DNA of 64,000 bases from a virus (lineage: Duplodnaviria; Heunggongvirae; Uroviricota; Caudoviricetes). This document shows positions 3,834-63,697 of this stretch, piece by piece (within the stretch, counting starts at the first letter, position 1; each line of letters starts with the position of its first letter). Below the pieces are notes generated by a model. The model made no database searches and was not told the DNA's origin. It worked only from the letters and a program-made list of their open reading frames with translations. Location of the stretch: positions 1 to 64,000 of IMG/VR virus record IMGVR_UViG_2791355382_000001; one strand, 5' to 3'. The position numbers and the translations under genes are program-made.

Positions 3834-3851
3834 AATACATTAATTTTATCA

Positions 3852-4787: not shown

Positions 4788-4975
4788 AGTGTTATTTAGC
4801 CTTAACTTACACTAATTAGCATACCCTAATTCTAACAAATAACTCAACTATTTTATTAACTTTTAAGCAAAAAAAGAGCTAGGATTTCTCCTAACTCTGT
4901 CATCATCACAGGTTTTTCCGTTGCCTGCCAACCGACTAGCTCTTATGTCTAGCATTGTTTTAAGTCTATCATAGA

Positions 4976-5755: not shown

Positions 5756-5756
5756 G

Positions 5757-6473
5757 TTAAATCAACCCCATGTAAGTTGTGTCTTGGTCTTTACGCTTAG
5801 AGAAGTCAAACGAATAGTTAGGTAACAATCTATAGAGCGTATTAGCTATTTCATTGTAGATACGAGCGTCCTTACAAATCTTTTCAGGGTTATTAAACAA
5901 ATCTACATCGAAGTTCAATTTATTCGCTAGTTCAGCGTTAGATAAAACGTTAGACCCATCGCCTAATCTAACACGGAAAATAAGGTTGCGAATTTGACGG
6001 TAGTTTTGAAGTGTATTGGTAAAGTTATAATCCAACTTATAGGAAGGAATTAAGTCTAAGCGTAGCATTTCGTACACATCAATTGCATAAGCGTTAGGCT
6101 TAGCATTAGGATTACTGTTGTTTAAAATCTTGGATAAACTACCGTCACTTAAGTTTGCTAATACAGATAATTGTGACCTAGAAATATTCTTCTTGTACAA
6201 GTTGTATTCAGCGTAAGCGTCAACCACATCTTGCATGGTTAGATTGCTGTAGTCAATCAAGGACTCATCAAGGATTTTCAAAGCGTCAACTAAAGCGTCA
6301 TAAGTTCTTTCGTCATCAGGGTCTTTAGCCAGCCTTAAAAATGTCCCCATAGCTGAGGTTGAATAGTAGTTGAAAAAACCAAAGATTGAACTGAAATATT
6401 TTACAGTTATTCTAGGGTCTTTGGTTGTTACTCGTTCAAACAGTTTAATAATTTCTTTATTTGGTTTTGTCAT
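5757..6473 (-). CDS. hypothetical protein (238 aa), 5' gene of a two-gene operon
   Basis: ORF with an RBS, followed 1 nt later by the 259-aa ORF. No recognisable motif. Confidence 0.5.
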   Translation of the reverse strand: MTKPNKEIIKLFERVTTKDPRITVKYFSSIFGFFNYYSTSAMGTFLRLAKDPDDERTYDALVDALKILDESLIDYSNLTMQDVVDAYAEYNLYKKNISRSQLSVLANLSDGSLSKILNNSNPNAKPNAYAIDVYEMLRLDLIPSYKLDYNFTNTLQNYRQIRNLIFRVRLGDGSNVLSNAELANKLNFDVDLFNNPEKICKDARIYNEIANTLYRLLPNYSFDFSKRKDQDTTYMGLI

Positions 6474-6730
6474 ATATCTTACCTGTCCTTAACTCTTAAT
6501 TTTATTTTTTGCAAGAAACACATATTGCATTTCTTTCTTTACTCAACTAGTGTAAAGAAAAAATAAATTTAAAGCAAATAAAAATTAATTATTATTAGCC
6601 TATTCAAACGTTTTCTTTATTTTTTGTTGCATTAAAAAAGCCCTACAATTCAACAATTGTAAGGCTTTCATAATGAAGACAAATATTTTTGTTTACTTTT
6701 TTATTAAGGTTATTTAACCCCTTGTTACAG

Positions 6731-9565
6731 CTAAAGTTGACCCTTGTCGTTACCTTCAGTCACGTCTTTGACCTTATCGCTTGAACTTGCAACAATACTT
6801 CCAGTAGACCTATGAGAATCAACGGTTTCAGCGTCTTTTTGAGCTTTATACCACTCTTCAAGTTCTTTCAGGAAAGAATTGTAAGGTGAATTTGATTTAC
6901 GTATGCCATGAAACATATTTCTACCTTTATTTTTACTTTGATCTCCATCTTTATTTTCGTCATCAAGCTTAGGAAGTTCAGGGGCCTTTTTATTCGTGTT
7001 ATTTTCAATCAGTTCTTCACGGTGATTGTATAGGTAGAACCAGTACTTTTTATCTAAAGCTTTGAGCTTATCCAAAGTCCAATCTGGTGTTGGTTTAGGG
7101 TCTGGGATAGCAACGTCTTCTGTATCTATATAGTCAGTGTTGGTACCATCGCCGTCAGAAACCGTAGTTTCCATTTCTGCTAAAACTTCTTCACGACTGA
7201 TTACATAATCGTTTCTACCAAACTTCTTGGTTAAGCTGTCGTTCAAAGCGTTCATGGTATCTTCTGAAAGATATGGTGAGTTACCGTGTTCAAAGTTAGC
7301 AACACCGTTCATGATAGAGTAAAACTCACCAGGTTGTGAGATAAAGTGAGCCTTGATACCAGTGTCTGGCAAAGCAATGTCAGATTCAATAGCTTCACTA
7401 AGTCCTAACGATACACGACCTGTGATGTTAGCGGTAATGTTACCTCTAATCTTATCTTTACGAGCTGTTTGGTTAGCGAATAACAAGCGTATACCTGTAG
7501 AACGAGCCATCTTAGCTAAGTATTCAAACCTATCGGCTGTTCCTAGCTTGCTTACTTCAGTTGGTTTTAGATCGTTGTCTTTATCCATGATTGCAGAAAA
7601 TTCGTCAACGATTACTAAAAGTTCAGGCATCTTTTGGTCTGGGAATTTCTTATTAAATTCGGCCAACTTTTGCACTGAGTTTTCTTTAAAGATAGCAATT
7701 CTTCTTCTAACTTCGTTTTCAAGGTGCTTGATTAAAGCTCTAGCATATTCAATATCCCCTGACGCATCAGCTGGTTGAGCATAAACGTATGGATTAGGGT
7801 GTCCTTTATCATTACGCATAAATTCAAAGGAGTTACCTTTACCATCAATAAATACCATCTTAACTTGGCTAGGATCAACAGCTGACATAACTGAATAAAC
7901 AATAGTCATGATTGTAACTGTCTTACCTGTACCAGTCTTACCAAATAAGATAGCGTGAGGGTTGCTATCACCTAGTTCAAAGTAGATAGGATTACCTAAT
8001 TCATCAACACCTAACATACCTGAAATAAGGTTTGATACACCCTTTTTACGAGCTAGGATCATATCGCTAAATGAAGCTGGCACGTTTACACCATTATCAA
8101 TAGAAAGCTTTAAGATACCTGCTGATAAAGTAACGATTGGTGTTGCTTTAATACGTAGGTAGTTAGCAATTTGTTTTTGAATACGATCAAAGTTGTCAGG
8201 CAAGTTAGGGTCTTGCGGTAGTACATATTCGTAAATAGCGTTGTTACCGCCGACTTCAACCTTCTTGAATTGACCGTTGATCTTAACAGCGTTCAAAGCC
8301 ATTGTTACATCTGGAATACGAGCTTTGGCTTTACGCATAGCAATTGAGCGTTGGGTTTTTGCATCATTTTTAGTTTTAGGATCAATAGCAGGTGGAATCA
8401 CGCTTAGGTCAAGATTTTGTTGAACCTTGAAGTTAGCTACTTCTGCACTTTCATCAATCGCATATCTATATTCAGACAATTTGATAAAACGTCTGTAAAT
8501 AGCGTAAGGTGTTAAATGACCGATGTAATTAAGGATCGAACCAATTTTTTCAAAGTATGAAACTAAGTAACCTTTACCACCTTGACTAGTGCTATTGTCA
8601 GGGTTAAATGGATTAGTAAAAATATCCTTCCATGCACCTAGTTGTTCATCAGCTTCATAACTAACTGAAGAGTTAAAGGTATAACCCTTTAACTTAGAGT
8701 TGTATGTAGGGTCTGATGGAAAGAAGATTGAGTTGCCAGAAATACGATCGCCTAAGCCTTTAAGGGCATTTTCAATTGAGCGGTCGGTTTCAGTTTCTCT
8801 TGACTGTCTGATTAAGATTTGTGCTTCTCTGACTCCATTAGCCGTAGTTTTAATCTTAATCTTAGTTCTTCTCATCGCTACCGCCGTAGCTTTTTTAGTT
8901 TGTGTAGCAGCAGTTCCCCCTGCCCCATCTTTAAACGGTTGCCCATTGTCTTGATAGCCTTGTACCGCAGCTTCGTAACTGTCGTTTAGGTTTTCTTTGA
9001 TTTTAGCTCTAAGTTTACCAGCTAAAATAAAGTCTGCCATCGGTGTTTGTCTACCGACTAGGTATAAGAATACTCTAGGGAATGTTAGATAAGCTGGAAC
9101 AACTACGTTAGCTGTTCGTGGGAAAGATACTCTCCAAACTAAGGCAATGCTGTCGATAATCGCTCCAAAAAAGAAGGTAACAACAAATGCTTGCCAGTAG
9201 TACCAACGATAATCACCAATCTTAGTGCTAATCCAGTGCGAAACTAGTTCATACTTTTGATGAATGGATTGCATAAACGGTGATTGTAAGAATAATTCCC
9301 AAAAGGTATGAAACCTAGCTGCAAGCATAACCCAAATTGGTTGCTTCAATAGTATAGGGTGTAAAGTCCAATGCCAAAAAGCCCAAAGACCAGCAAAGCA
9401 CCCAACTATAATTGCGCCAGTGATAACCTTATCCCAAGCAATATCAATGTTGGCTTTAATCCATGCTCTAAAGCTAAATTCAATCAACCAAAACAACACA
9501 GCAAAGGCGATACCATAAGGTAAAACATAATGTAAGATAAACCAAATAATTGATTCAAAATTCAC
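6731..9565 (-). CDS. FtsK/SpoIIIE-family DNA translocase, putative type IV coupling protein (TcpA-like) with N-terminal TM segments and a long C-terminal extension
   Basis: 944 aa. Four N-terminal TM helices. Walker A FGKTGTGKTVTIMT and Walker B LLVIVDEFSAIM in an FtsK-like motor domain. Conjugation-gene context. Confidence 0.8.
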   Translation of the reverse strand: MNFESIIWFILHYVLPYGIAFAVLFWLIEFSFRAWIKANIDIAWDKVITGAIIVGCFAGLWAFWHWTLHPILLKQPIWVMLAARFHTFWELFLQSPFMQSIHQKYELVSHWISTKIGDYRWYYWQAFVVTFFFGAIIDSIALVWRVSFPRTANVVVPAYLTFPRVFLYLVGRQTPMADFILAGKLRAKIKENLNDSYEAAVQGYQDNGQPFKDGAGGTAATQTKKATAVAMRRTKIKIKTTANGVREAQILIRQSRETETDRSIENALKGLGDRISGNSIFFPSDPTYNSKLKGYTFNSSVSYEADEQLGAWKDIFTNPFNPDNSTSQGGKGYLVSYFEKIGSILNYIGHLTPYAIYRRFIKLSEYRYAIDESAEVANFKVQQNLDLSVIPPAIDPKTKNDAKTQRSIAMRKAKARIPDVTMALNAVKINGQFKKVEVGGNNAIYEYVLPQDPNLPDNFDRIQKQIANYLRIKATPIVTLSAGILKLSIDNGVNVPASFSDMILARKKGVSNLISGMLGVDELGNPIYFELGDSNPHAILFGKTGTGKTVTIMTIVYSVMSAVDPSQVKMVFIDGKGNSFEFMRNDKGHPNPYVYAQPADASGDIEYARALIKHLENEVRRRIAIFKENSVQKLAEFNKKFPDQKMPELLVIVDEFSAIMDKDNDLKPTEVSKLGTADRFEYLAKMARSTGIRLLFANQTARKDKIRGNITANITGRVSLGLSEAIESDIALPDTGIKAHFISQPGEFYSIMNGVANFEHGNSPYLSEDTMNALNDSLTKKFGRNDYVISREEVLAEMETTVSDGDGTNTDYIDTEDVAIPDPKPTPDWTLDKLKALDKKYWFYLYNHREELIENNTNKKAPELPKLDDENKDGDQSKNKGRNMFHGIRKSNSPYNSFLKELEEWYKAQKDAETVDSHRSTGSIVASSSDKVKDVTEGNDKGQL

Positions 9566-20798: not shown

Positions 20799-21017
20799 TA
20801 TTTGTTGTGGCAAGCTTTATTAATGCAAATAAAAAACACCTATCAACTAGGTGCCTCGTACATGTCGACATTGTACAGAGTAGACAGTGCATTTCTGCCT
20901 GCGATTATATTATTACTATTTTTTCATTCAATTGTCAATAAAAAAGCTTGATCCACAGCTAGATGTAGCTATGGTTTTAGGTTTTAATATTTATATTTAA
21001 ATAAACGAATATATGAC

Positions 21018-21328
21018 CTGTCTTTGCCTATGTCATTCTGGCTAAGTTCAAAACCTTTCTTTTAGGAGTCTTACACCTATATCACTCAGTTAGGTTCAGA
21101 ACACAACTTTATCTTGAGAAATACGTTTCTTTGGTCTTACACCTATGTCATTTAACTTAGGTTCAGAATAAAGAATGACTTAAAAGTCCCTTATTTAAAG
21201 TCTTGCACCTATGCCATTTAACCAAAGTCTTGCACCTATGCCATTTAACCTAGGTTCAGAACGTGGCGGTAGCGAAAGCAACTCATACCAAGGTCTTGCA
21301 CCTACATCAATTCAACTAGGCTCAGAAC
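21018..21328. CRISPR. CRISPR-type array 1: 5 repeats of GTCTT(A/G)CACCTATG(T/C)CATTTAAC(C/T)TAGGTTCAGAAC (one truncated at 21200-21226) plus a degenerate distal repeat at 21018-21053
   Basis: Read directly. Repeats at 21068-21102, 21134-21169, 21200-21226 (truncated), 21227-21262 and 21293-21328. Unique 30-31-nt spacers at 21103-21133, 21170-21199 and 21263-21292. The conserved element begins at 21329. Confidence 0.85.
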
Positions 21329-21467
21329 CATTGTTTCCTAACCTATATTTAATTGTGACATAAGCTTCTTGGGAACTCTTCGGACTTGCGACACCTTACT
21401 GTTAGATTAACTAACTGGTATTGTAGAGGTTAAAGATATTGGCCAAGCTGTCGAGAACAAGCGTCCT
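21329..21467 (-). ncRNA. conserved array-adjacent element, copy A (CRISPR leader or omegaRNA/tracr-like scaffold); the only complete copy with no tRNA-like module
   Basis: About 140 nt, roughly 80-90% identical to copies at 22367-22506, 24668-24806, 25542-25690, 32192-32318 and 33375-33500. All end ...CCAAGCTGTCGAGAACAAGCGTCCT. Orientation is assumed from the copy abutting the TnpB-like gene. Confidence 0.6.
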
Positions 21468-22132
21468 TCAAATTTTATTATCTAACGCTCAAATAACACT
21501 TCAAACATGAGCTTTCACTCTGCTTATATGTGCTACCGCTTATTATGCGAACGTTTCAAAAGGTCTGAGCAACAAGGAGCTACCTTGCTACTTCCTTTTG
21601 CCTTAAATAACGTGGCTACTATGATAAGTACCAACTTTCAGGCAATCATTCAGAACTTTGTTTTTATTTTAATCTTAATTGTTGTATGTGGATTTCAAGT
21701 CCAAGACAACAATTACTGTCTGTAATCTTGATGCCATTGCCCTACTTGTTCTTGTTTCCGTTGTTATAGCTCAGTTTCCTAAGCGTCAAGGCAAACACTG
21801 TCTTTGGTTATTCCCATCTCACCACCTAGCTACCACCCTAAGCTGCCAATGGGTTATTCTCACACCGTGAGCGTCTATTTTATCCAGTGCCAACGGTCAA
21901 CAAAGCACTAACGTCACACACTTCCACATACGCACCAAACGTCCTAGCTTTTACCAGGTTTGATAGTTATTGCTAATAATCTCTCGACTTATCTAAGCTA
22001 TCACTCAGACTACATCTACTACGAATTACAGGTACATATCCGACAAGATTTGACTAAAACCCTTATGCAATCGGTTATGCTTGAAGCGTTATTTGAACGG
22101 TAAATAATTTCTGATTCTGGATCCTCTATATA

Positions 22133-22366
22133 GCCTTACACCTATGTCATTTAACCTAGATTCAGAACTTTTAGCAACGATGTCATAATCAGTTTTCTGT
22201 CTTGTACCTATGTCATTTAACTTAGGTTCAGAACTATATTATCCAGGACTTGGAGTTCAAGTAGGTCTTACACCTATGCCATTTAACTTAGGTTCAGAAC
22301 TACTCTCCAAATACCTTATTTCCACTACAAGTCTTACACCTATGCCATTTAACTTAGGTTCAGAAC
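22133..22366. CRISPR. CRISPR-type array 2 (4 repeats, 3 spacers of 30 nt)
   Basis: Repeats at 22133-22168 (distal variant GCCTTACA...), 22199-22234, 22265-22300 and 22331-22366. Spacers at 22169-22198, 22235-22264 and 22301-22330. Confidence 0.9.
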
Positions 22367-22506
22367 CTTTGTTTTCTAACCTATATTTAATTGTGACACA
22401 AGTTTCTTGGGAACTCTTCAGACTTGCGATGTCTTACCGTTAAATTAACCATCGACACACCGTAGAGGTTAAAGATGTTTACCAAGCTGTCGAGAACAAG
22501 CGTCCT
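22367..22506 (-). ncRNA. conserved array-adjacent element, copy B. It lies directly downstream of the TnpB-like gene's 3' end, separated only by the tRNA-like module
   Basis: Conserved sequence. Its array-proximal roughly 35 nt (TTTTCTAACCTATATTTAATTGTGACACAAG) resemble a degenerate repeat. Together with 22511..22571 it forms an omegaRNA-like 3' unit of the TnpB-like gene. Confidence 0.6.
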
Positions 22507-22510
22507 CCTA

Positions 22511-22571
22511 TAACGATGGCAGGAGTTGAACCTGCATCTGTTACCTTGCCTTACCGTTAGGCTACATCGCT
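22511..22571 (-). ncRNA. tRNA-like minihelix lacking the anticodon arm; overlaps the last 15 nt of the TnpB-like CDS
   Basis: Minus-strand read: acceptor stem AGCGATG/CATCGTT, D-arm GCCT-AACGGTA-AGGC, a 13-nt linker in place of the anticodon stem-loop, a canonical T-arm GCAGG-TTCAACT-CCTGC, discriminator A, and no encoded CCA. Confidence 0.6.
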
Positions 22572-24044
22572 ACTTGTTTCTTCTTTAGGTGTGGTTTTAT
22601 TTTTAGCTCCACACTTAGTACATGTCCACTTTTCATCTTGTGTGATAACCGTACGTTCATGCCCACATTTCTTGCAAGTATCATTCATCTTATCAAGCAA
22701 GTCTAAACCTTCATCTAAGATGTTTTTAGCTGCGTTAATATCTTGATCGTGGTGTGAATTACAGATAGGACAAGTCCACTTACGGTCGCTTAATTTAAGG
22801 TTGTGCTTAATGTAACCACAAGTATGGCAACGCTTTGAAGTTGGTGACCAACGATCAATAAACACAATCTTTTTATCAGCCCAGTCCATCATGTAAGTGA
22901 GCGTATCTCTAATTTCACGAAAGTTTGATCTAGTGATTGCTCTAGCACGGTATTTGTTCTTTTCCATGTCTGAAACAGCTAGGTCTTCCATAACGATTAC
23001 ATCATATTCATTAGCAAGCTTTGAACATGTCTTTTTAATATAGTCTTTCTTTAAGTTTTTAATACGTAAATGTAACTTAGCAATCTTCTTTTTGTTCTTT
23101 TGGTAATTGCTACGTTCAGCCAATGTAGGAACATGCTTTGGAATTAAGGCTTTTTTATTGTCTTCTTCAATGATTGCAACCTCTTTTTTCCATTGTTCAT
23201 ACTTGCGACTACGCTTTACGTTTTCTTTTTCAATCTTTTGTTCTAATTTTCTGATTTTGTCATATGGCAATTGGTATCTAGTACCATCTTGTAAAACAAT
23301 ATGACTGTTACCTGTTACGTTTAAGTCAATACCAGCTGCTAAACCAGTTCTAGGACGTTTTACTGTATGCTCAGCTTGTTCAAACACAAATGATACATAC
23401 CAAGTATCGCTGGATTCATGCTTAATTGTTACTTTATACAAACGTCCGTCACTAGGATAGTGATTAGCCATCTCAATTAAGCCTAACTTAAATCTTTTCA
23501 ATTTACCTACTCTAAGGTGCTTGCCGTCTTCACTGATTTCACAAACATGAGCGCCTGAGGTATAACTACCTTGATTTTCAACGTCCATTGTTGTTTTAAA
23601 CCTAGGAATACCAAAGTGTCTAGGGTTTTTCAAATGGTTGCTCATCGCTGTTTTTAAAGTACGTAAAGTGTAACTATACATGCTAGTATCAGCGTCTTTT
23701 AAAGTCCAACCACTTTCAAACACAGTTTCATCAGCATCGTAAATAGCCTTAGTCGAAAGTCCACGTAAACCTTTGAACAAATCACGTTGCTCTTCCCATG
23801 ACATTCTTTCAATGCGTTTATAAACTTCTTTACTTTGTTTGTTCCTAGGTAAAGCTTGAACTTCATCTAACTCACTAACTGGCTTATAAACTTCAGCTAG
23901 TAATGCGTTCCACATCTTGATATTAGCAAACATATTAAACGTTAAATATGCTTGTTGATCCTTAGTAGGATAAATTCTAATTCTACGACTTTCTAAAACT
24001 TTTTCTTCCATTTTTCTACAACTCCTTTTAAAATACCAATGCAA
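22557..24044 (-). CDS. tnpB: TnpB/Cas12-like RuvC nuclease, enlarged (495 aa) with an extra C-terminal zinc ribbon
   Basis: N-terminal RIRIYPTKDQQAYL (TnpB WED/REC signature). RuvC-I AAGIDLN, RuvC-II VIVMEDLAVSDM, Zn finger CHTCGYIKHNLKLSDRKWTCPIC, RuvC-III HDQDINAAKNI, and an additional CKKCGH...CTKCG ribbon. The REC-like region before RuvC-I is about 245 aa, longer than canonical TnpB. Confidence 0.85.
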   Translation of the reverse strand: MHWYFKRSCRKMEEKVLESRRIRIYPTKDQQAYLTFNMFANIKMWNALLAEVYKPVSELDEVQALPRNKQSKEVYKRIERMSWEEQRDLFKGLRGLSTKAIYDADETVFESGWTLKDADTSMYSYTLRTLKTAMSNHLKNPRHFGIPRFKTTMDVENQGSYTSGAHVCEISEDGKHLRVGKLKRFKLGLIEMANHYPSDGRLYKVTIKHESSDTWYVSFVFEQAEHTVKRPRTGLAAGIDLNVTGNSHIVLQDGTRYQLPYDKIRKLEQKIEKENVKRSRKYEQWKKEVAIIEEDNKKALIPKHVPTLAERSNYQKNKKKIAKLHLRIKNLKKDYIKKTCSKLANEYDVIVMEDLAVSDMEKNKYRARAITRSNFREIRDTLTYMMDWADKKIVFIDRWSPTSKRCHTCGYIKHNLKLSDRKWTCPICNSHHDQDINAAKNILDEGLDLLDKMNDTCKKCGHERTVITQDEKWTCTKCGAKNKTTPKEETSSDVA

Positions 24045-24119
24045 TTTATGTATAATCTTTTGGCTGACTACACTACATTAACCTTCCACAACGGACGTCT
24101 TTATTTGTGCTATCAGCAC

Positions 24120-24215
24120 TTTTTTGGGAACTCTTCAACAAAGAAAAGCAACCTGCAATTCTTTGCTTGCGAAGATGTTTACCAAACTGTGAAGAGCAAG
24201 CACCCTCCTATAACG
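24120..24215 (-). ncRNA. partial copy C' of the conserved element (tRNA-proximal about 95 nt only), immediately upstream of the TnpB-like gene's 5' end
   Basis: Keeps GGGAACTCTTC...GATGTTTACCAAACTGTGAAGAGCAAGCACCCT but lacks the array-proximal repeat-like part. Confidence 0.45.
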
Positions 24216-24272
24216 ATGGTAGGAATCGAACCTACGTCGCCTCGCTTTGCTCTGCCATTGAGCTACATCGTT
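24211..24272 (-). ncRNA. tRNA-like minihelix lacking the anticodon arm (copy C)
   Basis: Minus-strand read: AACGATG-TA-GCTC-AATGGCA-GAGC-A-[13 nt AAGCGAGGCGAC...]-GTAGG-TTCGATT-CCTAC-CATCGTT-A. Canonical D- and T-arms with a 13-nt linker instead of the anticodon arm. Confidence 0.6.
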
Positions 24273-24302: not shown

Positions 24303-24667
24303 GTCTTACACCTATGTCATTTAACCTAGGTTCAGAACTGTGAATTATAATCACTCACATAAACGTGAGTCTTACACCTATGTCAATTCAACTAGGTTCA
24401 GAATCCAAGTCGGCTTGTGAGTGTATGGAAGATAGTCTTACACCTATGTCATTTAAACTAGGTTCAGAACGATCTCCCAAGCGAAGGAATCGAAGGCATG
24501 GTCTTACACCTATGTCATTTAAACTAGGTTCAGAACTATGCTCTAAAGCTCTGAATGTTTTTCTTGGTCTTACACCTATGTCATTTAACTTAGGTTAAGA
24601 ACGTAGGACTGTCATACCTATTCCCAATACGAGTCTTACACCTATGTCATTCAACTAGGTTCAGAAC
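24303..24667. CRISPR. CRISPR-type array 3 (6 repeats, 5 spacers of 30 nt)
   Basis: Repeats at 24303-24338, 24369-24404, 24435-24470, 24501-24536, 24567-24602 and 24633-24667 (the last is a 35-nt variant). All spacers are unique. Confidence 0.9.
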
Positions 24668-24806
24668 CATTGTTTCCTAAACTATATTTAATTGTGACAT
24701 AAGCTTCTTGGGAACTCTTCAGACTTGCGATGTCTTATTGCTAGATTAACTAACTGACAACGTAGAGGTTAAAGATGTTTACCAAGCTGTCGAGAACAAG
24801 CGTCCT
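24668..24806 (-). ncRNA. conserved array-adjacent element, copy D
   Basis: Sequence conservation with the other copies. A tRNA-like minihelix follows at 24811-24858. Confidence 0.6.
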
Positions 24807-24810
24807 CCTA

Positions 24811-25095
24811 TAGGCACTAGTGGAATTGAACCACTATTACAGTAACCATACGTGCCAACCTACAATAAATATAAAGGAGATGCAGGCATAAATTCCTGCG
24901 ATAGATACAATGTACGCAGGGGTTAAGGAGAAACCCCCTATTAGCACTGGTAGAATCGAACTACCACTAAGCAACCATGCGTGCTAACCTTGAGTAAATC
25001 ATTCAGTACAATCACACCGCCGCCACGAACCCTAGATGGCGGCAATAAGCATAGCTAGAATCGAACTAACTTTTATTCCAAAATGCTTAGATTTG
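24811..25095 (-). repeat. cluster of three tRNA-like minihelices (T-arm plus acceptor stem; 24811-24858, 24939-24990, 25045-25088) with GC hairpin GCCGCCACGAACCCTAGATGGCGGC at 25018-25042
   Basis: On the minus strand each reads GGCAC...[about 15 nt]...TGGTAG-TTCGATT-CTACCA...GTGCC, i.e. a T-loop consensus GTTCGATTC closed by a 5-7-bp acceptor-like stem. The 25045-25088 unit plus the GC hairpin is repeated at 33040-33120. Confidence 0.5.
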
Positions 25096-25109: not shown

Positions 25110-25541
25110 GTCTTACACCTATGCCAATTCAACTAGGTTCAGAACTAGTATATATGCAGATGAGCCGCTAGTACTGTCTTCAACCTATGTCATTTAGCCT
25201 AGGTTCAGAACAGGACTTCACCACCGTCTTCTAACTTTCGCGTCTTATACCTATGTCATTTAACCTAGGTTCAGAACAAAACTTGTTTACGATGCCCTCA
25301 CTACTAAGTCTTGCACCTATGTCATTTAACCTAGGTTCAGAACTATCAGCTCCAGGGAATTCAGCAGAGCCACGTCTTGCACCTATGTCATTTAACCTAG
25401 GTTCAGAACTAAAAACGATGAAAGCGATAGATGATTTCGGTCTTGCACCTATGTCATTTAACCTAGGTTCAGAACATAATATTATTGCCCAAAACGCTGC
25501 GTTCTGTCTTGCACCTATGTCATTTAACCTAGGTTCAGAAC
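25110..25541. CRISPR. CRISPR-type array 4 (7 repeats, 6 spacers of 30 nt)
   Basis: Repeats at 25110-25145, 25176-25211, 25242-25277, 25308-25343, 25374-25409, 25440-25475 and 25506-25541. Spacers are unique. Confidence 0.9.
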
Positions 25542-25690
25542 CGTTATTTTCTAACATATATTTAATTGTGACATAAGTTTCTTGGGAACTCTTCAGACTT
25601 GCATAATCGTAAACAAACTAATGCAATTTGCGATTATACAGAGGCCGAAGATATTAACCAAGCTGTCAAGAACAAGCGTCCTCCAAATAG
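25542..25690 (-). ncRNA. conserved array-adjacent element, copy E
   Basis: Sequence conservation; the central part diverges (CATAATCGTAAACAAACTAATGCAATTTGCGATTATACAGAGG, similar to copy F). Followed by a tRNA-like minihelix at about 25696-25744. Confidence 0.55.
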
Positions 25691-25695
25691 CGATG

Positions 25696-25744
25696 GCAGG
25701 AGTTGCACCTGCATTGATCTACCGTTTGGCATCGCTACACATAA
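25696..25744 (-). ncRNA. tRNA-like minihelix (copy E): acceptor AGCGATG/CATCGCT, a D-loop-like remnant, T-arm GCAGG-TGCAACT-CCTGC
   Basis: Minus-strand reading; no anticodon arm. Confidence 0.5.
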
Positions 25745-26476
25745 AATGTACATAAATGAATAAAGATAAAGTTAAGATTATAAGGCTTGTGCTAATGCTT
25801 ACAGGAACGATAGAGGCTTACATGTAGTTTACTGATGTCCCTGTAGGCTTAACCCTTTGCCTTACGTTTATTATAATACACTATCTCACACTCTAAGTCA
25901 AATGTTTTTGTATACTTTTTTAAAATAAAATTCGAAAAAGTTAAAAAATAAAAAAAGCCACAAGCCTAGGTAACCCTAGATGTGACTTTCTTAACTAGAG
26001 CGAAACAAACATTAAGGAGCCTCAACTGTTTTTCGCTAGTTCTATTTTAACATAAACACTAACGTTTACAATTATCCTAATGTTTGTTTTATCATCAGTT
26101 TCTTTAACCATCTTAAAACGCTTCCTTTAATTGTTTTTCTTTACTTTTGGATCCATGCCATGTATTATTGTATATGAAAAGAGGACAAACAGGTCGCAAC
26201 TGTTTGCCCTCGAGCGTGAATGTTTAAGGCTATTGTGTGTTGGCTAATTATGATTACTTAAAATCATGATTAGCTTTTTTTATTATCCAATACGCAACGG
26301 CAACGTCTATTGTAAATAATTATGCGTAAACCTAGAAAAAGCTTGAATATCATAAAAAAAGGCTATATACTGAAAGTGTGTCGTATCAGTATATAGCCTT
26401 GTTCCTAGCCTATTTTCTAGGAACTTTTTTTTATTTATAACCAAGCATCGCACAAACGAATATCTAGTCCTTCTTC

Positions 26477-26711: not shown

Positions 26712-28031
26712 CTATCCCATAGCATATTGCTTTTCAGTAATTGCTTGTTTTTGCCAATTATTATGATGCGATAATCTATCTAACTTAGATAAAGCCACTT
26801 TCCTATATCTATCAGATGTTGTTAGATAATTACCAAATATATCTTTAATATAACAAGACGATTGACTAAATCCACTAATATAACCTTTCTTGTTACTATC
26901 CTTGATTCTGACATAATCATTAAGCCAAAAACCTTTGGCATATTTAGTATTTCTAGCGTTTCTTTTACTTGTTATATTAGGTGTCTTACGACCCTTACGT
27001 GCCGTAGCCTCATGTAAGGAACGCTTTTTCTTTCTAAATTGCTTAAACATCATAATGCTAGTTGGTTTTGCTTTGATTTTTTTAATGCCACTAATTGCTA
27101 CAGCGTCATTATAGTGGGACTTGGTTAATTCTAAATCGACTCGCTGTAATGTTGTCCATGCTCCATACTGAAATTTAGCTTGTGGGAAAGAAGTAAATAG
27201 TCTTCTTCTTAGAATGTTCATGAAAGTCGCACCTTTATAAGACTTGTTGACTTTCTTTTTATCCTTACACCACTTAGCTAAGATTCCACTTTGATGGTTT
27301 TTAGTTGTATGACACTTAGAACATACGGTAATTAGATTATCTATGGTATTAGTTCCACCTAAGGAGCGATAGATAATATGGTGGATTTTGAGTTTACCAC
27401 CCTTTTTTTTACATACTTGACAAGTATAGTTATCTCTAGCCAAAACAAATTGTTTAACAGTTTGATAACCGTATAAATCACCTTGCTGATAACCCTCACC
27501 ATTTATTGCTGGATTCTTCATTTTTTGCATATCAAACTTACCAACTTCGATATGTAAATCAGCTTTAGGTAGAACTGATAATAATCTTTTTATCCAGTTG
27601 ATATTATGGTTAACCTTACTTGCCACTGATGGTGGCAACCAGTTATCTTTTTTACTAGCTATACGGTTTAAAAACCTCGCTTTACGATAACGTGTCTTAC
27701 GATTACGTCGACTTCTACGGTATATTCTTCTAGTATCTATCAGTTTTTTAACATCTTGTCTTAACTCTACTTCGCCTTGAAATAAGACTTTATCTTGGCT
27801 TGTAACAGCTAAACCAATATGTCGTTGACCGCTATCAATTCCAATACTTACATCTTGTTTATAGCCAGTTGAACCATATAAGAGCTGAATGGTAAAAGGC
27901 TCTTTTTTTAAGACTTTTGCTTTACCATCTCTCAACAAAATTCTAGCTTTTCTAGGTTTACATGGCATTAGTGCTTTACCATGTTTATTAATGACAAAAA
28001 CTCGGTTTTGCATAGTTTGTACTCCTTCCAT
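26712..28031 (-). CDS. iscB: IscB (OMEGA RNA-guided nuclease; RuvC split by an HNH insert, N-terminal PLMP domain)
   Basis: PLMP motif KALMPCKPRKARILLRDGKAKV. RuvC-I SIGIDSGQRHIGLAV. HNH HHIIYRSLGGTNTIDNLITVCSKCH with flanking CQVC and CSKCH. RuvC-III KSHYNDAVAISGI. Confidence 0.85.
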   Translation of the reverse strand: MEGVQTMQNRVFVINKHGKALMPCKPRKARILLRDGKAKVLKKEPFTIQLLYGSTGYKQDVSIGIDSGQRHIGLAVTSQDKVLFQGEVELRQDVKKLIDTRRIYRRSRRNRKTRYRKARFLNRIASKKDNWLPPSVASKVNHNINWIKRLLSVLPKADLHIEVGKFDMQKMKNPAINGEGYQQGDLYGYQTVKQFVLARDNYTCQVCKKKGGKLKIHHIIYRSLGGTNTIDNLITVCSKCHTTKNHQSGILAKWCKDKKKVNKSYKGATFMNILRRRLFTSFPQAKFQYGAWTTLQRVDLELTKSHYNDAVAISGIKKIKAKPTSIMMFKQFRKKKRSLHEATARKGRKTPNITSKRNARNTKYAKGFWLNDYVRIKDSNKKGYISGFSQSSCYIKDIFGNYLTTSDRYRKVALSKLDRLSHHNNWQKQAITEKQYAMG

Positions 28032-28330
28032 TTTTTATAAGGTATCTATGACCTTATCACGTATTTATCAGAGTTAATAAATACATGTTCTTACCCTTCG
28101 ACAATGTTATCTCAGCTTATAAACAAGGTTGACTAGCACATTAACCTTATGCTTGTTTACAGAGCCTTCATAGAGCTAGAAACTAGGGTATCATTTCTAG
28201 GTATGATCACTGAAATAACGTAGTTACTTAAAACTTAGTCTAGACAACAAGGCTTGTAGTTTATTGCTACAAGTCACCTACTTTAGTAGGTGGTTACTGT
28301 TGACTGCACTTTTCCGTCTACCACGTCGAT
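28032..28330 (-). ncRNA. candidate IscB omegaRNA region (upstream of iscB, same strand)
   Basis: The position matches known IscB omegaRNAs (5' of iscB). Contains stable hairpins (CTAGAAACTAGGGTATCATTTCTAG; TAGGTGGTTACTGTTGACTGCACTTTTCCGTCTACCAC). Called from position and structure only. Confidence 0.3.
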
Positions 28331-32058: not shown

Positions 32059-32191
32059 GTCTAAGGCTTATGCCAGTTTAATTCTCTTTCAATCCTAGTC
32101 TTAGCACTTATGCCGTTCTAACTAGATTCAGAACTTTTTGAAAATAGATATTTTAGTCTTCAACCTACGTCATTTCAGCTAGGCTCAGAAC
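32059..32191. CRISPR. CRISPR-type array 5 (degenerate: about 3 decayed repeats, 1 short spacer)
   Basis: Repeat-like copies at 32059-32094, 32098-32134 and 32157-32191 with strong divergence. It abuts element F at 32192. Confidence 0.55.
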
Positions 32192-32318
32192 CTATATTAA
32201 ATTGTGACATAAGCTTCCTGGGAACTCTTTAGACTTACATAATTGCTAACTAACTAATGCAAGTTGCGATTATGCAGAGGTTAGAGATGTTTACCAAGCT
32301 GTCAAGAACAAGCGTCCT
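32192..32318 (-). ncRNA. conserved array-adjacent element, copy F (array-proximal part shortened)
   Basis: Sequence conservation; ends ...CCAAGCTGTCAAGAACAAGCGTCCT. Confidence 0.55.
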
Positions 32319-32322
32319 TCAA

Positions 32323-32383
32323 TAGCGATGACAGGAGTCGAACCTGTATCTCATGCCTTGCTCTACCGTTAAGCTACATCGCT
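32323..32383 (-). ncRNA. tRNA-like minihelix lacking the anticodon arm (copy F)
   Basis: Minus-strand read: AGCGATG-TA-GCTT-AACGGTA-GAGC-[14 nt]-ACAGG-TTCGACT-CCTGT-CATCGCT-A. Confidence 0.6.
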
Positions 32384-32394
32384 ACACACACACT

Positions 32395-33125
32395 TTTTAT
32401 TAAGGGAGGAAAAAGTGTTGTACATATACATTCCGATTAGTTGGTTCGCCCTTGCGTTGGCAAAGGCTATTGGCACTGGTAGAATCGAACTACCACAAAA
32501 GCAACCATGCGTGCCAACCTTAAAAAAATAAAAAAGGAAAGATATTTTTGTTGCCCCACTAGGGTTATTTTAGCCCTTGTTTTACCAAGGAAATTAGCAC
32601 CAGTGGAGTCGAACCACTGTAAAAGCAACCGTACGTGCCAACCAAATCATAAATATTAAATCAAGGAGTTATGTTAGTTAGGATAATTATTACTATCCTA
32701 AAGAGAAAAAGTTTTGAGTTTGTAGCTTAATGCTACAATTGGCACTAACAGAATCGAACTGTTACAAGACAACCATGCGTGCCAGCCGATAAGTAACTTT
32801 TAAAAAAGGAGTAATATACAACCATTTTAGGGTTTATTCAAGCCCTATTGGTGTTAGCGGAATCGAACCACTATACAGCAACCATGCACACCAACCAATA
32901 TCTTAAGAGTTTATATAATAAGGCATTTGAGCCTAAAATAAGAGGAAATAGTTTTAGGGTTGTTATACCCTATTGGTAGCCAAGGAATCGAACCTTGATA
33001 CAACCACTCTACCAACTTATAAGTAATAGTTTTAGTGCAAGTGCGTTGCCACTACGAAGCTTAGGTAGCGGCAATAAGCATAGCTAGAATCGAACTAGCT
33101 TTTATTCCAAAATGCTTGTTAGATA
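32395..33125 (-). repeat. tandem array of six degenerate 100-130-bp units, each with a tRNA-like T-arm/acceptor minihelix (GAATCGAAC on plus strand = GTTCGATTC T-loop on minus strand)
   Basis: Minihelices end at about 32517, 32645, 32770, 32895, 33018 and 33118. Each is preceded on the plus strand by an AT-rich stretch with AAGGAG-like motifs and a TAGGGTT...AACCCTA hairpin. Confidence 0.55.
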
Positions 33126-33138
33126 AACCTGTGATAAT

Positions 33139-33374
33139 GTCTTATCTTATGCTAGTTTCAATTAGGTTCAGAACCTTTACAGTTAATAATGAATACAGTA
33201 GTAGGTGTCTTCAATCTATGTCAATTCAACTAGGTTCAGAACATGTGATGGATATGTTAATCAATGGTTGTCGTCTTGCATCTATACCATGTCAGATAGG
33301 TTCAGAACTATGGTCAAGATTATATAAAATCTAGGCATGTCTTCAACCTACGTCAATTCAATTAGGATCAGAAC
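33139..33374. CRISPR. CRISPR-type array 6 (4 repeats with drift, 3 spacers of 30-32 nt)
   Basis: Repeats at 33139-33174, 33207-33242, 33273-33308 and 33339-33374. Spacers are unique. Confidence 0.75.
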
Positions 33375-33500
33375 CTATATTTAATTGTGACATAAGCTTC
33401 TTGGGAACTTTCCATGCTTGCAATGTTTTACCGTTAGATTAACCAACGTTACACCGTAGAGGCTAGAAATATTTACCAAGTTGTCAAGAACAAGCGTCCT
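33375..33500 (-). ncRNA. conserved array-adjacent element, copy G
   Basis: Sequence conservation. A tRNA-like minihelix follows at 33505-33558. Confidence 0.55.
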
Positions 33501-33504
33501 CCAA

Positions 33505-34040
33505 TTAGCACTAACGGAATTGAACCGTTATTACAGCAACCATGCGTGCCAACTCAATAATTACTATAGAAAGGTTTTACTATGGCAAAACACTAGCATT
33601 ACCATCTTTTAGGGTTTATCCAACCCTATTGGCACTAGCGGAGCCGAACCGCTATGAAAGTAACCGTACGTGCCAGCCGTAAGTCGAATCGAATATATAA
33701 AGGAGTAAAGAGATGCGAGTGTTCGCAATCTTTTAGGGTCTGTTTCAACCCTATTGGCAGCCAAGGACTTGAACCTTGATGCAACCATTCTGCCAACCAA
33801 TTTAATTAATTCAATAAAATAAAGGAGAATAGGGTCTATGGCAACCCTATTGGCACTAACGGAATCGAACCGTTATTATAGCAACCATGCGTGCCACACC
33901 CAGTTAGTAAGTAAAGTAACATATAAAACGAAAGGAGCGATGCAAACAATGTTTGCAACCTTGAGCCAAGCTTTAGCTTAGCTCTATTAGCAGTTAGAGA
34001 ATCGAACCCTAACAAAGCAACCATGCCTGCTATAAGATGG
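33505..34040 (-). repeat. second tandem array of five tRNA-like minihelix units (100-130-bp period)
   Basis: GAATTGAACC / GAGCCGAACC / GACTTGAACC / GAATCGAACC / GAATCGAACC cores, each closed by a GGCAC...GTGCC-type stem and preceded by an AACCCTATTGGC hairpin. The ORF-track calls here (33609..33800, 33836..34075) are translation artefacts of the repeat. Confidence 0.55.
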
Positions 34041-40712: not shown

Positions 40713-42065
40713 GTGAAAACGATGGTCAGGAAACAAAAATCTAAGAAAGCTACCATACAAGCTTTTAGAGATATAAGAGATAAAAAGACAGAAATTCAGT
40801 ATGAATACTTGGTAGAAAAACATGTTATTAGAGCTAATGACAGTCGTTATTTAACCTTAGCTAAGTACGCTCACTTGGCTAATAATATCTATAACCAAGC
40901 TTTATATCGCTTTAGGCAATCTTTATTTAAAGGTAAATGGTTGAGTTATGGAGCATTAGATAGGTCATTTAAACAGTCATATCAACAAAAAGATTGTATG
41001 CTTTATCGTTCTATGAAAAGCGTTCATTTAGCTCAACAAATTTTAAAGTTAGTCATGCAAAATATGACTGTTTGGAATAAAGCTGTTAAAGCTTATCAGA
41101 AGAATCCTGGTAAATTTACTGGTAGACCTAAGCTGCCAAAATATAAAAACAAAGGCGGTAAAAGTATCGTTATCGTAGATAATCAAACCGCTAAATTACG
41201 TCCAAATGGCATTGTTGAAATACCTGTAATGAATAATCTAAAAATTAAGTTACAACATCAAGATACAACTAAAATTCAACAAGTTAGGATTGTTCCTAAA
41301 AATAATCAGTTTGTAGTTGAAATTGTTTATAAAACTAACAAGGTTATTGCTTATAAAAAAGATAACGGACGTTATCTTACAATAGATCCAGGACTTGATA
41401 ATGCTTTTACTTTGGCATCTAATGTTAAAGAGTTTCAACCTGTAATTGTTAATGGACGACCTTTAAAGGCAATTAACCAATACTATAACAAACAAAGAGC
41501 TAAATTAACTAAGTTATACGACTTTAATAAACAAAGTCGTAATACTAAACGTTTAAATAACTTAGATTTTTATCGTAATAAAAAAGTTTTAGGATTTGCT
41601 CATGAGGCAAGTAAACGCATTGTTGAAATAGCGTTAAACCATGAGTTAAATACGATTGTTATTGGTAAAAATAAAGGTCAAAAACACTTTATTAATCTAG
41701 GTAAAATTAACAATCAGAATTTTATTGGAATCCCACATCAAAAAATGGTAGAGATGATTGAATATAAAGCTAACTTAGCTGGAATTGTTGTTATTCAAGC
41801 CAATGAGGCTTATACCAGTCAAACATCATTTTTAGATAACGAAGAACCAATTAATCAAAATGGAGATAAAGCTCGTAAACGTAAAGGACTAAGTCCTACT
41901 AAAAGACGTATAAAACGTGGATTATTCAGGTCGAATAAAGGCTTTTTGATTAATGCTGATGTTAATGGAGCTTTACAGATATTAAGAAAAGTAGTACCGA
42001 ACGCTTTTGCTGACGGTATAGATGGAATCGGATTAGTTCCAGTTAAGCTAAACTTAAATTTCTAA
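40713..42065 (+). CDS. tnpB: TnpB (IS605/IS1341 OrfB family) with a degenerate zinc finger
   Basis: RuvC-II EAYTSQTS and RuvC-III NADVNGALQILRK. 450 aa. The C-terminal region lacks the usual CxxC pair. Confidence 0.75.
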   Translation: MKTMVRKQKSKKATIQAFRDIRDKKTEIQYEYLVEKHVIRANDSRYLTLAKYAHLANNIYNQALYRFRQSLFKGKWLSYGALDRSFKQSYQQKDCMLYRSMKSVHLAQQILKLVMQNMTVWNKAVKAYQKNPGKFTGRPKLPKYKNKGGKSIVIVDNQTAKLRPNGIVEIPVMNNLKIKLQHQDTTKIQQVRIVPKNNQFVVEIVYKTNKVIAYKKDNGRYLTIDPGLDNAFTLASNVKEFQPVIVNGRPLKAINQYYNKQRAKLTKLYDFNKQSRNTKRLNNLDFYRNKKVLGFAHEASKRIVEIALNHELNTIVIGKNKGQKHFINLGKINNQNFIGIPHQKMVEMIEYKANLAGIVVIQANEAYTSQTSFLDNEEPINQNGDKARKRKGLSPTKRRIKRGLFRSNKGFLINADVNGALQILRKVVPNAFADGIDGIGLVPVKLNLNF

Positions 42066-63497: not shown

Positions 63498-63697
63498 AAA
63501 CATTTAAAAGGGGGGTGAGCTACACCCTTAAGCTATCAGAGTTAGTCAATGTCATTACCCTCTAGTTAGGATATGGGAATACTAGCGTTGACGGTAGTAA
63601 ATAAAATTCAGGAAAGGAAAAATATATTCTTTCTAATAATGTAGAAGGAACTACATATCTTTCTATATTATTCTACATTTTATATAGCTGTTAGCTG

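Follow-up and report, generated by a model that had tools for sequence, protein, structure and literature searches.

The 64,000 nucleotides (nt) analysed here, positions 1 to 64,000 of the IMG/VR record IMGVR_UViG_2791355382_000001 (hereafter the window), are a Ligilactobacillus salivarius-type megaplasmid of the conjugative type. On the minus strand the window carries a single-copy gene with conserved synteny for a TnpB-derived RuvC nuclease (22557..24011), which lies within an RNA-gene island on the same strand (20.8-25.9 kb). The island contains arrays resembling clustered regularly interspaced short palindromic repeats (CRISPR), and upstream of each array stands a block of ~134 nt, the scaffold, that is conserved across lineages. 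A covariance model of this scaffold (R1, built from 10 copies with locus L007 left out) recognised six full copies in the window, with scores of 120-146 bits and spread over 12.5 kb, together with one degenerate copy. The 3' end of each full scaffold is fused with a mini-array, which is made up of 36-nt hairpin repeats and unique 30-nt spacers.

The open reading frame (ORF) of the nuclease, as given by the ORF list, extends over 22557..24044 on the minus strand and amounts to 495 amino acids (aa) if counted from a TTG. A first-pass annotation had described an enlarged TnpB/Cas12-like protein of this length. The ORF exists and the enlargement is real; however, the true start is more likely ATG 24011, which yields 484 aa. 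An AAAGGAG is found 10 nt 5' of this ATG, while the TTG comes without a Shine-Dalgarno-like sequence; the 95% identical RefSeq protein WP_284650758.1 is annotated as 484 aa; and the family alignment begins at MEEK/RIYP in all members. Thus 11 aa of the N-terminal extension claimed at first would be an artefact of ORF calling.

Judged from its sequence, the 484-aa protein is a TnpB-family RuvC nuclease with an intact predicted catalytic triad. The residues D229 (AAGIDLN), E342 (MEDL) and D424 (HDQDINAAKNI), in 484-aa numbering, are invariant in 17 aligned family sequences, and ORF and catalytic residues are intact in all family members aligned. In a HMMER alignment with chain 8h1j the three residues fall onto the ISDra2 TnpB motifs AAGVDVG, GTEHL and HDRDENAALNI, which we take to hold the catalytic residues D191, E278 and D361. 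The CxxC...CxxC finger of the TNB domain (C395, C398, C414, C417) is invariant in the 17 sequences as well, so that triad and finger had both been read correctly in the first place. Two Pfam models, OrfB_IS605 and Cas12f1-like_TNB (77 bits for the latter), are passed. A second C-terminal zinc ribbon (CKKCG...CTKCG), also pointed out before, is indeed present and kept in 14/14 aligned members with at least 64% identity. In the family alignment it is missing in relatives at 48%, 48% and 36% identity, and it is missing in the 50% identical relative of locus L006, although that relative is array-associated. The ribbon is therefore restricted to a subclade and does not define array association.

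Compared to ISDra2 TnpB (408 aa), the N-terminal helices contribute ~30 additional aa, the helical hairpin that links RuvC-I to RuvC-II 26 aa, and the C terminus with the second ribbon ~15-20 aa. In the predicted structure the enlargement over TnpB appears real but modest, and it consists of insertions with no REC expansion like that of Cas12f. The suggestion that REC-lobe and C-terminal expansions mark the protein as Cas12f/Cas12-like did not stand, since no REC/WED expansion of the Cas12f style is seen and TnpB ranks first both by sequence and in the Foldseek comparison that had been proposed for an AlphaFold model. The AlphaFold2 model (mean pLDDT 79.5) placed TnpB (8h1j, 8iaz) above Fanzor2, LaTranC and Cas12p, and these above Cas12f, when searched with Foldseek against the PDB.

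Sequence comparison points in the same direction. Among solved structures, the best natural match is ISDra2 TnpB (E 3e-28), and the list continues with ISFba1 TnpB (E 1.8e-25), LaTranC (E 6e-16, similarity confined to the RuvC/TNB region), Cas12n (E 2.8e-12) and Cas12f chains (E 2e-5 to 4e-4, covering the TNB region only). The NCBIfam model NF040570 (guided_TnpB) recognises the protein at 179 bits, above its cut-off of 100, which places it in the TnpB family; it does not pass the equivalog models IS200_TnpB, with 208 bits against a cut-off of 425, and IS607_TnpB, with 134 bits against 350. The PADLOC models Cas12u4 and Cas12f gave 115 and 110 bits. However, an ordinary 388-aa TnpB encoded elsewhere in the window (62331-63497) scores slightly higher on both, with 121 and 116 bits, and the PADLOC matches therefore reflect the TnpB superfamily and not Cas12f. 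By sequence and predicted fold, the protein is thus nearest to transposon TnpB (ISDra2, ISFba1), while for Cas12f (V-F) we found only a weak match limited to the TNB region, a lower Foldseek rank than that of TnpB and a PADLOC score under that of the control.

Array-bearing relatives and an omegaRNA-derived scaffold

A protein search returned a tight clade (P0001-P0023; 47-95% identity, 440-509 aa), after which identity drops sharply to ~30%, the level of ordinary TnpBs. Genomic contexts were read for members at 96, 95, 71, 70, 69, 65 and 50% identity. Their replicons comprise a second plasmid, a 180-kb IMG/VR contig (L014) and phage-like contigs from metagenomes, up to 124 kb long, which carry SPbeta-YorH-like, DnaB, RecD2 and Pnkp/RNA-ligase genes. 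All close relatives with readable flanks (L001, L014, L002, L004, L094/95, L096, L097, L010 and L006; 50-96% identity) have an adjoining CRISPR-like array. Wherever upstream sequence was available, an array of 36-nt repeats and 30-nt spacers lies on the same strand within ~100-150 nt upstream of the gene. In L002 and L004 a single strand holds, in this order, tRNA/ROOL, scaffold, array, nuclease gene and tRNA(s); the order scaffold, array, gene recurs in L094/95, L097 and L006, and its array-gene part in L010 and L096. On the evidence of these contexts, the adjacency of the TnpB-like effector and a CRISPR array is evolutionarily conserved. The first-pass annotation had centred on an array-associated derivative of TnpB as opposed to an ordinary TnpB borne by an insertion sequence (IS), and would have given this up if the nearest homologues had all been ordinary IS-borne genes; the arrays beside every readable relative at 50-96% identity bear it out.

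Beyond this family the picture changes. GTDB representative genomes contained no close relative, the best matches reaching 30-38% identity. Relatives at this distance are TnpBs of the usual length (~370 aa) from genera such as Enterococcus and Trichococcus, and several occur more than once in a genome. A scan of IMG/VR gave one close relative only, L014, the remainder being TnpBs at ~30% identity. One could argue from these usual, partly multi-copy neighbours, and from the transposon TnpBs that are nearest by sequence and fold, that the gene is an ordinary selfish TnpB of the IS200/IS605 type, or a decaying relic of one, beside which the arrays lie by coincidence. We consider this hardly credible. 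Among the 46 window ORFs of at least 120 aa, no TnpA was found, neither of the Y1 nor of the serine type, which agrees with the earlier remark that tnpA is lacking, and the gene is present in a single copy. Moreover, synteny with array and scaffold is held over 50-96% protein identity in unrelated replicons, and no aligned member has lost the reading frame or a catalytic residue. Cas1, Cas2 and Cas4 were likewise not found among these 46 ORFs.

What had been overlooked before is that the conserved unit beside each array is a scaffold derived from omegaRNA. RNAalifold folds the scaffold with 26 pairs, 12 of them with compensatory changes, and the long-range CUUGG:CCAAG helix that closes it is invariant. 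The R1 model, built without L007, matches this locus at 8340-8481 (36.6 bits, E 5e-7). The match begins 20 nt after the stop codon of P0023, a 47%-identical relative of 440 aa, and so occupies the canonical omegaRNA position; it extends through ...GTTCCCAAGAAC and then diverges, as is expected where a guide starts. By this sequence homology to the element in the omegaRNA position of P0023, the scaffold is omegaRNA-derived. Upstream of P0024 (36% identity) there is only an unconvincing scaffold-like match of 16 bits (E 0.004).

In the array-associated relatives the scaffold runs on into a degenerate repeat-copy hairpin, which we call repeat 0, and in L004 a genuine spacer of 30 nt comes after repeat 0. 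Such a pattern is expected if arrays originated by serial duplication of the omegaRNA 3' end. Serial duplication of omegaRNA segments is one of two routes to arrays that have been considered possible, the other being insertion of a transposon beside a pre-existing array (PMC10691335).

Repeat 0 and a UUAG-containing tail are together complementary to about the first 30 nt of the repeat, and the duplex between the 3' region of the scaffold and the repeat is predicted at -17 to -26 kcal/mol (RNAduplex). The scaffold tail pairs with the first 14 nt of the repeat better than shuffled sequences do in 5/5 repeat types (p 0.004-0.036). If scaffold and repeat 1 are folded together, the minimum free energy structures show a long imperfect stem in five of six cases, three of which also retain the closing helix. 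This stem resembles a single guide RNA in which the 3' end of a tracrRNA (trans-activating CRISPR RNA) is joined to the 5' end of the repeat. Inspection by eye and RNAduplex revealed neither a classical anti-repeat in the scaffold body nor pairing of the repeat 5' end with the CUUGG strand. As another candidate, the 3' tail of the repeat was considered as the CAAG strand of the closing helix. It fits the repeat types of the window, L002 and L094 and fails for L006 and L097, and was rejected.

Locus L007 deserves a separate remark. In this prophage (3784-8757), P0023 lies 13 nt downstream of a gene for a 1066-aa protein with a SIR2 domain and a weak PADLOC match of its N-terminus to Dsr1/ThsA-like proteins; the pair may represent a SIR2-TnpB defence module. 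After the omegaRNA-like scaffold of L007 comes an array with another kind of repeat, which is type I-E-like (GTTAAGTCCACGCATGTGGGGAAGATTC) and occurs four times with a period of 61 nt.

The RNA-gene island of the megaplasmid

The only syntenic plasmid record is NZ_CP123973, which matches one third of the query at ~91% DNA identity (megablast against the plasmid collection), while megablast of the region against the phage collection gave no match. Elsewhere the window encodes RepA_N, ParA, an Alp7A-like protein, FtsK/SpoIIIE, a sortase and an M23 peptidase.

All features of the island lie on the minus strand and are described in its direction. The island opens with a promoter-like site, TTGACT-17-TATTAT (25873..25901), upstream of unit D; this is a consensus match only and a candidate start of the island transcript. 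It is followed by a tRNA-like element (~25687-25745), scaffold D (25555..25689; R1 120.1 bits) and array D (25110..25541; 7 repeats, 6 spacers). After a stretch of minihelix repeats come scaffold C (24681..24813; R1 141.9 bits) and array C (24303..24668; 6 repeats, 5 spacers), the distal spacer of which is common to L001. A further tRNA-like element (24211..24272; Rfam tRNA 49.5 bits) is located 5' of the degenerate scaffold (24107..24213; R1 49.8 bits, E 1.6e-10), which lies in the 5' untranslated region of the nuclease gene and is also present in L001 and L014.

The nuclease gene ends in a 61-nt tRNA-like element that overlaps its stop codon (22511..22571; Rfam tRNA 48 bits) and itself ends 2-4 nt before the omegaRNA-like scaffold B (22380..22513; R1 145.6 bits). 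Scaffold B starts 44 nt past the nuclease stop, and its 3' end is fused with array B (22133..22366; four 36-nt repeats, three 30-nt spacers). Thus the claim that array units flank the gene on both sides is correct, with scaffold B and array B on the 3' side and the degenerate scaffold and array C on the 5' side. Between array B and scaffold A lies a ROOL RNA gene (21490..22098; Rfam RF03087, 225 bits), and directly downstream of it scaffold A (21342..21474; R1 134.6 bits) and array A (21027..21328), which has ~5-6 repeats, an internal 27-nt duplication and a degenerate distal end. A terminator-like hairpin with a T-run (20833..20857), again a consensus match only, stands downstream of array A.

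Outside the island, two further scaffold-array units recognised by R1 are found on the minus strand at 32.1-33.5 kb. Scaffold E (32191..32325) has a tRNA-like element upstream (32323-32383) and is followed by a 2-repeat remnant array (32099-32191); scaffold F (33374..33507) heads array F (33207-33374; 3 repeats, 2 spacers).

The four 61-nt tRNA-like elements named above (22511-22571, 24211-24272, 32323-32383 and ~25687-25745) have acceptor, D and T arms, while ~12 nt replace the anticodon arm. Each of them ends 2-4 nt before a scaffold, and five of the six full scaffolds begin 2-4 nt after the acceptor 3' strand of either such an element or a T-arm/acceptor minihelix. Because of this spacing we hypothesise that the elements are putative processing signals for RNase P and RNase Z of the host, which would set the 5' ends of the scaffolds. 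ARAGORN found no tRNA in the window and called none of the tRNA-like elements. The minihelices occur as about a dozen tandem-like units on the minus strand at 24810-25090 and 32430-34040. They consist of a tRNA acceptor/T-arm minihelix, for example GGTTGGCACGCATGGTTGC..GGTAGTTCGATTCTACCAGTGCCAAT, without D or anticodon arm, and each unit is followed by a short hairpin.

In the phage-like contigs L002 (11433-12724) and L004 (11441-12815) a tRNA cluster follows right after the nuclease gene, with odd anticodons according to ARAGORN (Asp-ATC, Tyr-ATA and one of 4 nt). A gene of the Pnkp/RNA-ligase type (AAA_33, Metallophos, RNA_lig_T4_1) is located near these clusters, and the combination suggests a tRNA-based counter-defence.

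ROOL RNA directly precedes a scaffold in the window, L001 (7300-7900), L014 (6045-6655), L002 (8743-9308), L004 (9072-9639), L094 (3079-3644) and L095 (2952-3517), and is absent from L006 and L097. Counted by lineage, it stands immediately upstream of the scaffold in four of six with readable upstream sequence. ROOL is therefore a frequent neighbour and not an obligate part of the system.

Other RNA-guided nucleases of the OMEGA type share the megaplasmid. A complete IscB gene (26712-28031, minus strand; NCBIfam guided_IscB 382 bits) with RRXRR and HNH domains lies ~2.7 kb from the TnpB-like gene and has a HEARO/omegaRNA directly upstream (28087-28304, minus strand; Rfam 118 bits); it represents a second, independent OMEGA nuclease. 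In L006 an IscB gene with HEARO is found downstream. Two more TnpB-family genes are encoded on the plus strand of the window (40713-42065, 450 aa; 62331-63497, 388 aa), the latter followed by an Rfam 'Transposase-1 RNA' motif (63533-63591, plus strand; 70.5 bits) that is consistent with an ordinary omegaRNA. The covariance-model search found no R1 scaffold near either of them.

Repeats, spacers and their targets

The 36-nt repeat of the window reads GTTCTGAACCTAGGTTAAATGACATAGGTGCAAGAC in the sense of the nuclease gene and contains an ACCTA..TAGGT hairpin. In total, the window holds at least 25 repeats and at least 17 full spacers, the latter 30 nt long and unique. Moving away from the scaffold, the repeats of array D carry 0, 0, 0, 0, 2, 3 and 5 mismatches, and elements with 95-96% identical nucleases have only 2-3 spacers in common. 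Taken together, the few common spacers and the rising degeneracy of the repeats suggest that spacer turnover is ongoing and polarised. Array A contains a perfect 27-nt tandem duplication at 21197-21250 (AAAGTCTTGCACCTATGCCATTTAACC), which results in a truncated repeat and is evidence of local slippage or recombination.

Repeats differ among the lineages of the relatives (GGCTGATACCTGTACAGAATGTCATAGGTAGAAAGC, GGATGATACCTATATGAAACAACATAGGTACACAAC, GGTACTAACCTATGTTAAATGACATAGGTACGAGGC and others). Seven distinct repeat sequences were found, all of which retain an ACCTAT..ATAGGT hairpin, and as far as the sequences tell the repeats co-diverge with the nuclease protein. L014 has a second type of mini-array at 8991-9236, downstream of its scaffold-array cluster (repeats around CTACCCATGCGTACATGGGATAGAC, 61-nt period), which is absent from the window.

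The window repeat, in the sense of the nuclease gene, is identical at 27/36 positions to the type II-A repeat of L. salivarius, GTTTCAGAAGTATGTTAAATCAATAAGGTTAAGACC (z = 5.6 against shuffles), and that system has 36-nt repeats and 30-nt spacers as well (PMC10715006). Together with the adaptation genes that are missing among the 46 window ORFs, this opens the view that the arrays are orphan or hijacking arrays, serving the II-A Cas9 of the host or using only its adaptation proteins, while the TnpB gene is a bystander in an RNA-gene island. We hold this to be unlikely. Neither cas9 nor a tracrRNA was found in the window, and the conserved RNA beside the arrays is an omegaRNA homologue and not a Cas9 tracrRNA. 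Furthermore, the association with nuclease and scaffold is kept in L002, L004, L097 and L010, although their repeats bear no resemblance to the II-A repeat of L. salivarius (z < 1). The flank that target sites have in common (see below) is, in II-A-like orientation, on the 5' side (TTTTG, TTTTA) and not on the 3' side as for a Cas9 protospacer adjacent motif (PAM). Since the common flank is on the 5' side, the scaffold is of the omegaRNA type and the link to the nuclease is conserved, Cas9 does not fit well as the effector. Nevertheless, II-A proteins of the host may play a part, most plausibly by adaptation in trans. The resemblance of the repeats could also be a mimicry by which the plasmid makes use of the host adaptation proteins.

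There is a concept of repeat mimics borne by mobile genetic elements (MGEs), and the repeat units might accordingly be RNA decoys, in the manner of RNA anti-CRISPRs or solitary repeat mimics, that soak up II-A components of the host while the spacers are incidental. A repeat that resembles that of the host and is present in many copies on a mobile element would suit such a role. However, the spacers are unique and uniformly 30 nt long, show turnover among close relatives and have perfect matches in rival MGEs; the phage relatives keep arrays without any resemblance to the II-A repeat; and the arrays are always linked to nuclease and scaffold. We thus regard decoys as quite improbable.

Three spacers have convincing targets. 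Spacer 25212-25241 of array D matches the L. salivarius megaplasmid NZ_CP117984 (199006-199035) at 30/30 positions, with TTTTG as 5' flank. This target stands directly after a TATAAT box, and it is present three times, each time upstream of a small gene near parM. L014 has the same repeat as the window and a 96% identical nuclease; one of its spacers agrees at 30/30 positions with seven small L. salivarius plasmids and at 28/30 with another seven, at an intergenic site with the 5' flank TTTTA. The last spacer of L002 agrees at 29/30 positions with the ROOL gene of L004, a sister phage, and at only 27/30 with the ROOL gene of L002 itself, with GTTGG as 5' flank. None of the three target sites has flanking repeats. 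As judged from these matches, the spacers derive from foreign elements, namely rival plasmids and a related phage.

Less certain is spacer 25476-25505, which matches genes of glycoside hydrolase family 70 (GH70) on many plasmids of Lactiplantibacillus, Loigolactobacillus and Weissella at 28/30 positions (E 0.09; mismatches at positions 4 and 6; 5' flank GTTAA) and marks an uncertain protospacer. Matches of 27/30 to Mammaliicoccus phages (phage collection; E 0.7) were disregarded as chance, the other search being empty.

The protospacer flanks are alike in a T-rich 5' side, while their 3' sides share nothing. A T-rich 5' flank is as in type V and TnpB systems, and TTTTR, seen twice, is a probable candidate PAM.

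The position of two targets allows for another function. The system might mainly bind and not cut. It would then be a repressor guided by RNA, or an incompatibility device, and would silence the promoters of co-resident plasmids or their regions for partition and replication; Cas12m and TldR provide precedents (PMC10442227; PMC13565253). The 30/30 megaplasmid target, which immediately follows a TATAAT box and recurs upstream of three small genes near parM, and the intergenic target on small plasmids would fit such a device. On the other hand, the RuvC triad is intact and invariant in the family, unlike in Cas12m or TldR, and the phage spacer against ROOL is not directed at a promoter. We therefore give this possibility a low probability only.

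Comparison with known systems and significance

Taken together, we consider it probable that the locus is a miniature type V-like CRISPR system without adaptation module, an intermediate on the way from TnpB to Cas12 (TranC / V-U*), which resides on a Ligilactobacillus megaplasmid and has a related form in large phages. Its use in conflicts between mobile elements is the best reading of its role.

Several observations weigh against this assignment. The resemblance of the window repeat to the type II-A repeat of the host leaves room for host Cas9. Cognate and non-cognate duplexes of scaffold tail and repeat do not differ (-9.2 vs -8.9 kcal/mol), so that co-variation of an anti-repeat is unsupported, and part of the complementarity is automatic, both partners being near-palindromic hairpins. 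Both strands of the CUUGG:CCAAG helix are retained, and hence the scaffold is not split as in the described TranC. The PAM is deduced from three protospacers and two effector types, with one of the T-runs belonging to a terminator. Convincing targets were obtained for only 3 of ~45 spacers and none in the phage collection. Finally, of the two other TnpB genes and the IscB gene in the window, none has an adjoining scaffold.

If the system functions as a miniature type V-like system, the following course might be envisioned. The island would be transcribed on the minus strand, and host RNase P and RNase Z would cut at the tRNA-like elements and minihelices to yield the 5' ends of the scaffolds. 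The 3' end of the scaffold (repeat 0 and the UUAG tail) would then pair with the 5' two-thirds of the repeat, either in cis with the first repeat, giving a natural single guide, or in trans with later CRISPR RNAs (crRNAs), with one scaffold for each loaded crRNA; the latter would account for the multi-copy scaffolds. The resulting ribonucleoprotein would read a T-rich 5' PAM and cut the DNA of competing plasmids or phages. New spacers may be acquired in trans, possibly through the type II-A Cas1-Cas2-Csn2 of the host, which we think possible because of the same 36/30 geometry and the repeat identity of 27/36.

One might speculate further that the locus preserves the birth of a CRISPR array from an omegaRNA. 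The unsplit scaffold would head the mini-arrays, with repeat 0 as the template that was serially duplicated, and tRNA enzymes of the host would release the guides. The repeats would be tuned to type II-A, so that an element with nothing but a nuclease borrows host adaptation against rival plasmids and phages, including their ROOL genes. In this scenario the tRNA-like punctuation would be the natural counterpart of engineered tRNA-gRNA arrays. We regard this extended scenario as tentative and rather doubtful as a whole.

CRISPR-associated TnpB derivatives without adaptation genes are well established, with 40 V-U* branches described (Altae-Tran et al., PNAS 2023; PMC10691335). TranC intermediates are defined by an omegaRNA split into tracrRNA and crRNA (Jin et al., Cell 2025, as cited in PMC13565253), and phage-borne TranC-like examples with arrays that target phages have been presented (bioRxiv 10.64898/2026.03.27.714800). 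The locus studied here agrees with these systems in many ways: a TnpB-sized RuvC effector (300-600 aa are reported), short arrays with repeats in the range of 32-38 nt, the missing Cas1, Cas2 and Cas4, the occurrence on plasmids and phages, arrays that target MGEs and an omegaRNA-derived guide. TranC clade 3 in particular is reported to resemble TnpB except for a larger helix inside RuvC (bioRxiv 10.64898/2026.03.27.714800), which the helical insertion of 26 aa observed here matches.

However, there are differences as well. The scaffold appears unsplit, with its own closing helix and repeat 0, and the array is physically joined to it. Six copies of the scaffold-array module occur within 12.5 kb, and they are dispersed away from the gene. 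Among the phage relatives the array is found upstream of the nuclease gene, while arrays are reported to be almost always downstream (PMC10691335), and the modules stand among tRNA-like elements and ROOL RNA. From LaTranC, the one TranC with a solved structure, the protein differs in that similarity is limited to the RuvC/TNB region (E 6e-16). CRISPR-associated TnpB derivatives are already known, while the architecture found here is unusual; the family itself may belong to one of the published TranC/V-U* clades.

With the TnpBs of IS200/IS605 elements (ISDra2, ISFba1), which are the best matches by sequence and fold, the system has the triad and the TNB finger in common, and its scaffold has a homologue in the omegaRNA position of P0023. 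In contrast to these transposons, it has no TnpA, no left or right IS ends and no mobile multi-copy distribution; it has arrays of diverse 30-nt spacers instead of one fixed guide; and the protein comprises extra REC helices, a longer RuvC helical hairpin and the second zinc ribbon. Nor does the locus correspond to an OMEGA system with a single omegaRNA and one fixed guide, since the scaffold 44 nt past the stop codon heads an array and is one of six.

Cas12f PAMs are T-rich, and Cas12f (V-F) and Cas12n (V-U4) resemble the system in their T-rich 5' protospacer flanks, in the miniature effector and in a scaffold or tracr-type RNA paired with the repeat, which is a prediction in our case. They differ by weak similarity (E at least 2e-5 for Cas12f), PADLOC scores no better than those of the TnpB control, an expanded REC/WED region that is not seen here and a fold that is further away than that of TnpB. 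Mini-CRISPR arrays borne by viruses and plasmids, which rely on an effector of the host, are comparable as short MGE arrays whose spacers match close competitors. Here, in contrast, the MGE brings its own nuclease and scaffold.

The locus offers a direct link between omegaRNA and array: homologous scaffolds occupy the omegaRNA position of a 47% identical relative and head the arrays of closer ones, and the terminal hairpin of the scaffold is repeat-like. This link bears on the question of whether arrays arose by serial duplication or by transposon insertion beside an existing array (PMC10691335). The multi-copy scaffold-array modules punctuated by tRNA-like elements lead to a testable model of guide biogenesis by host RNases, and with 484 aa and a probable short T-rich PAM the nuclease is a candidate for a compact genome editor. 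For the lactobacilli and their mobile elements, the spacers point to conflicts of plasmid against plasmid and phage against phage, in which ROOL RNA genes would gain a place as targets.

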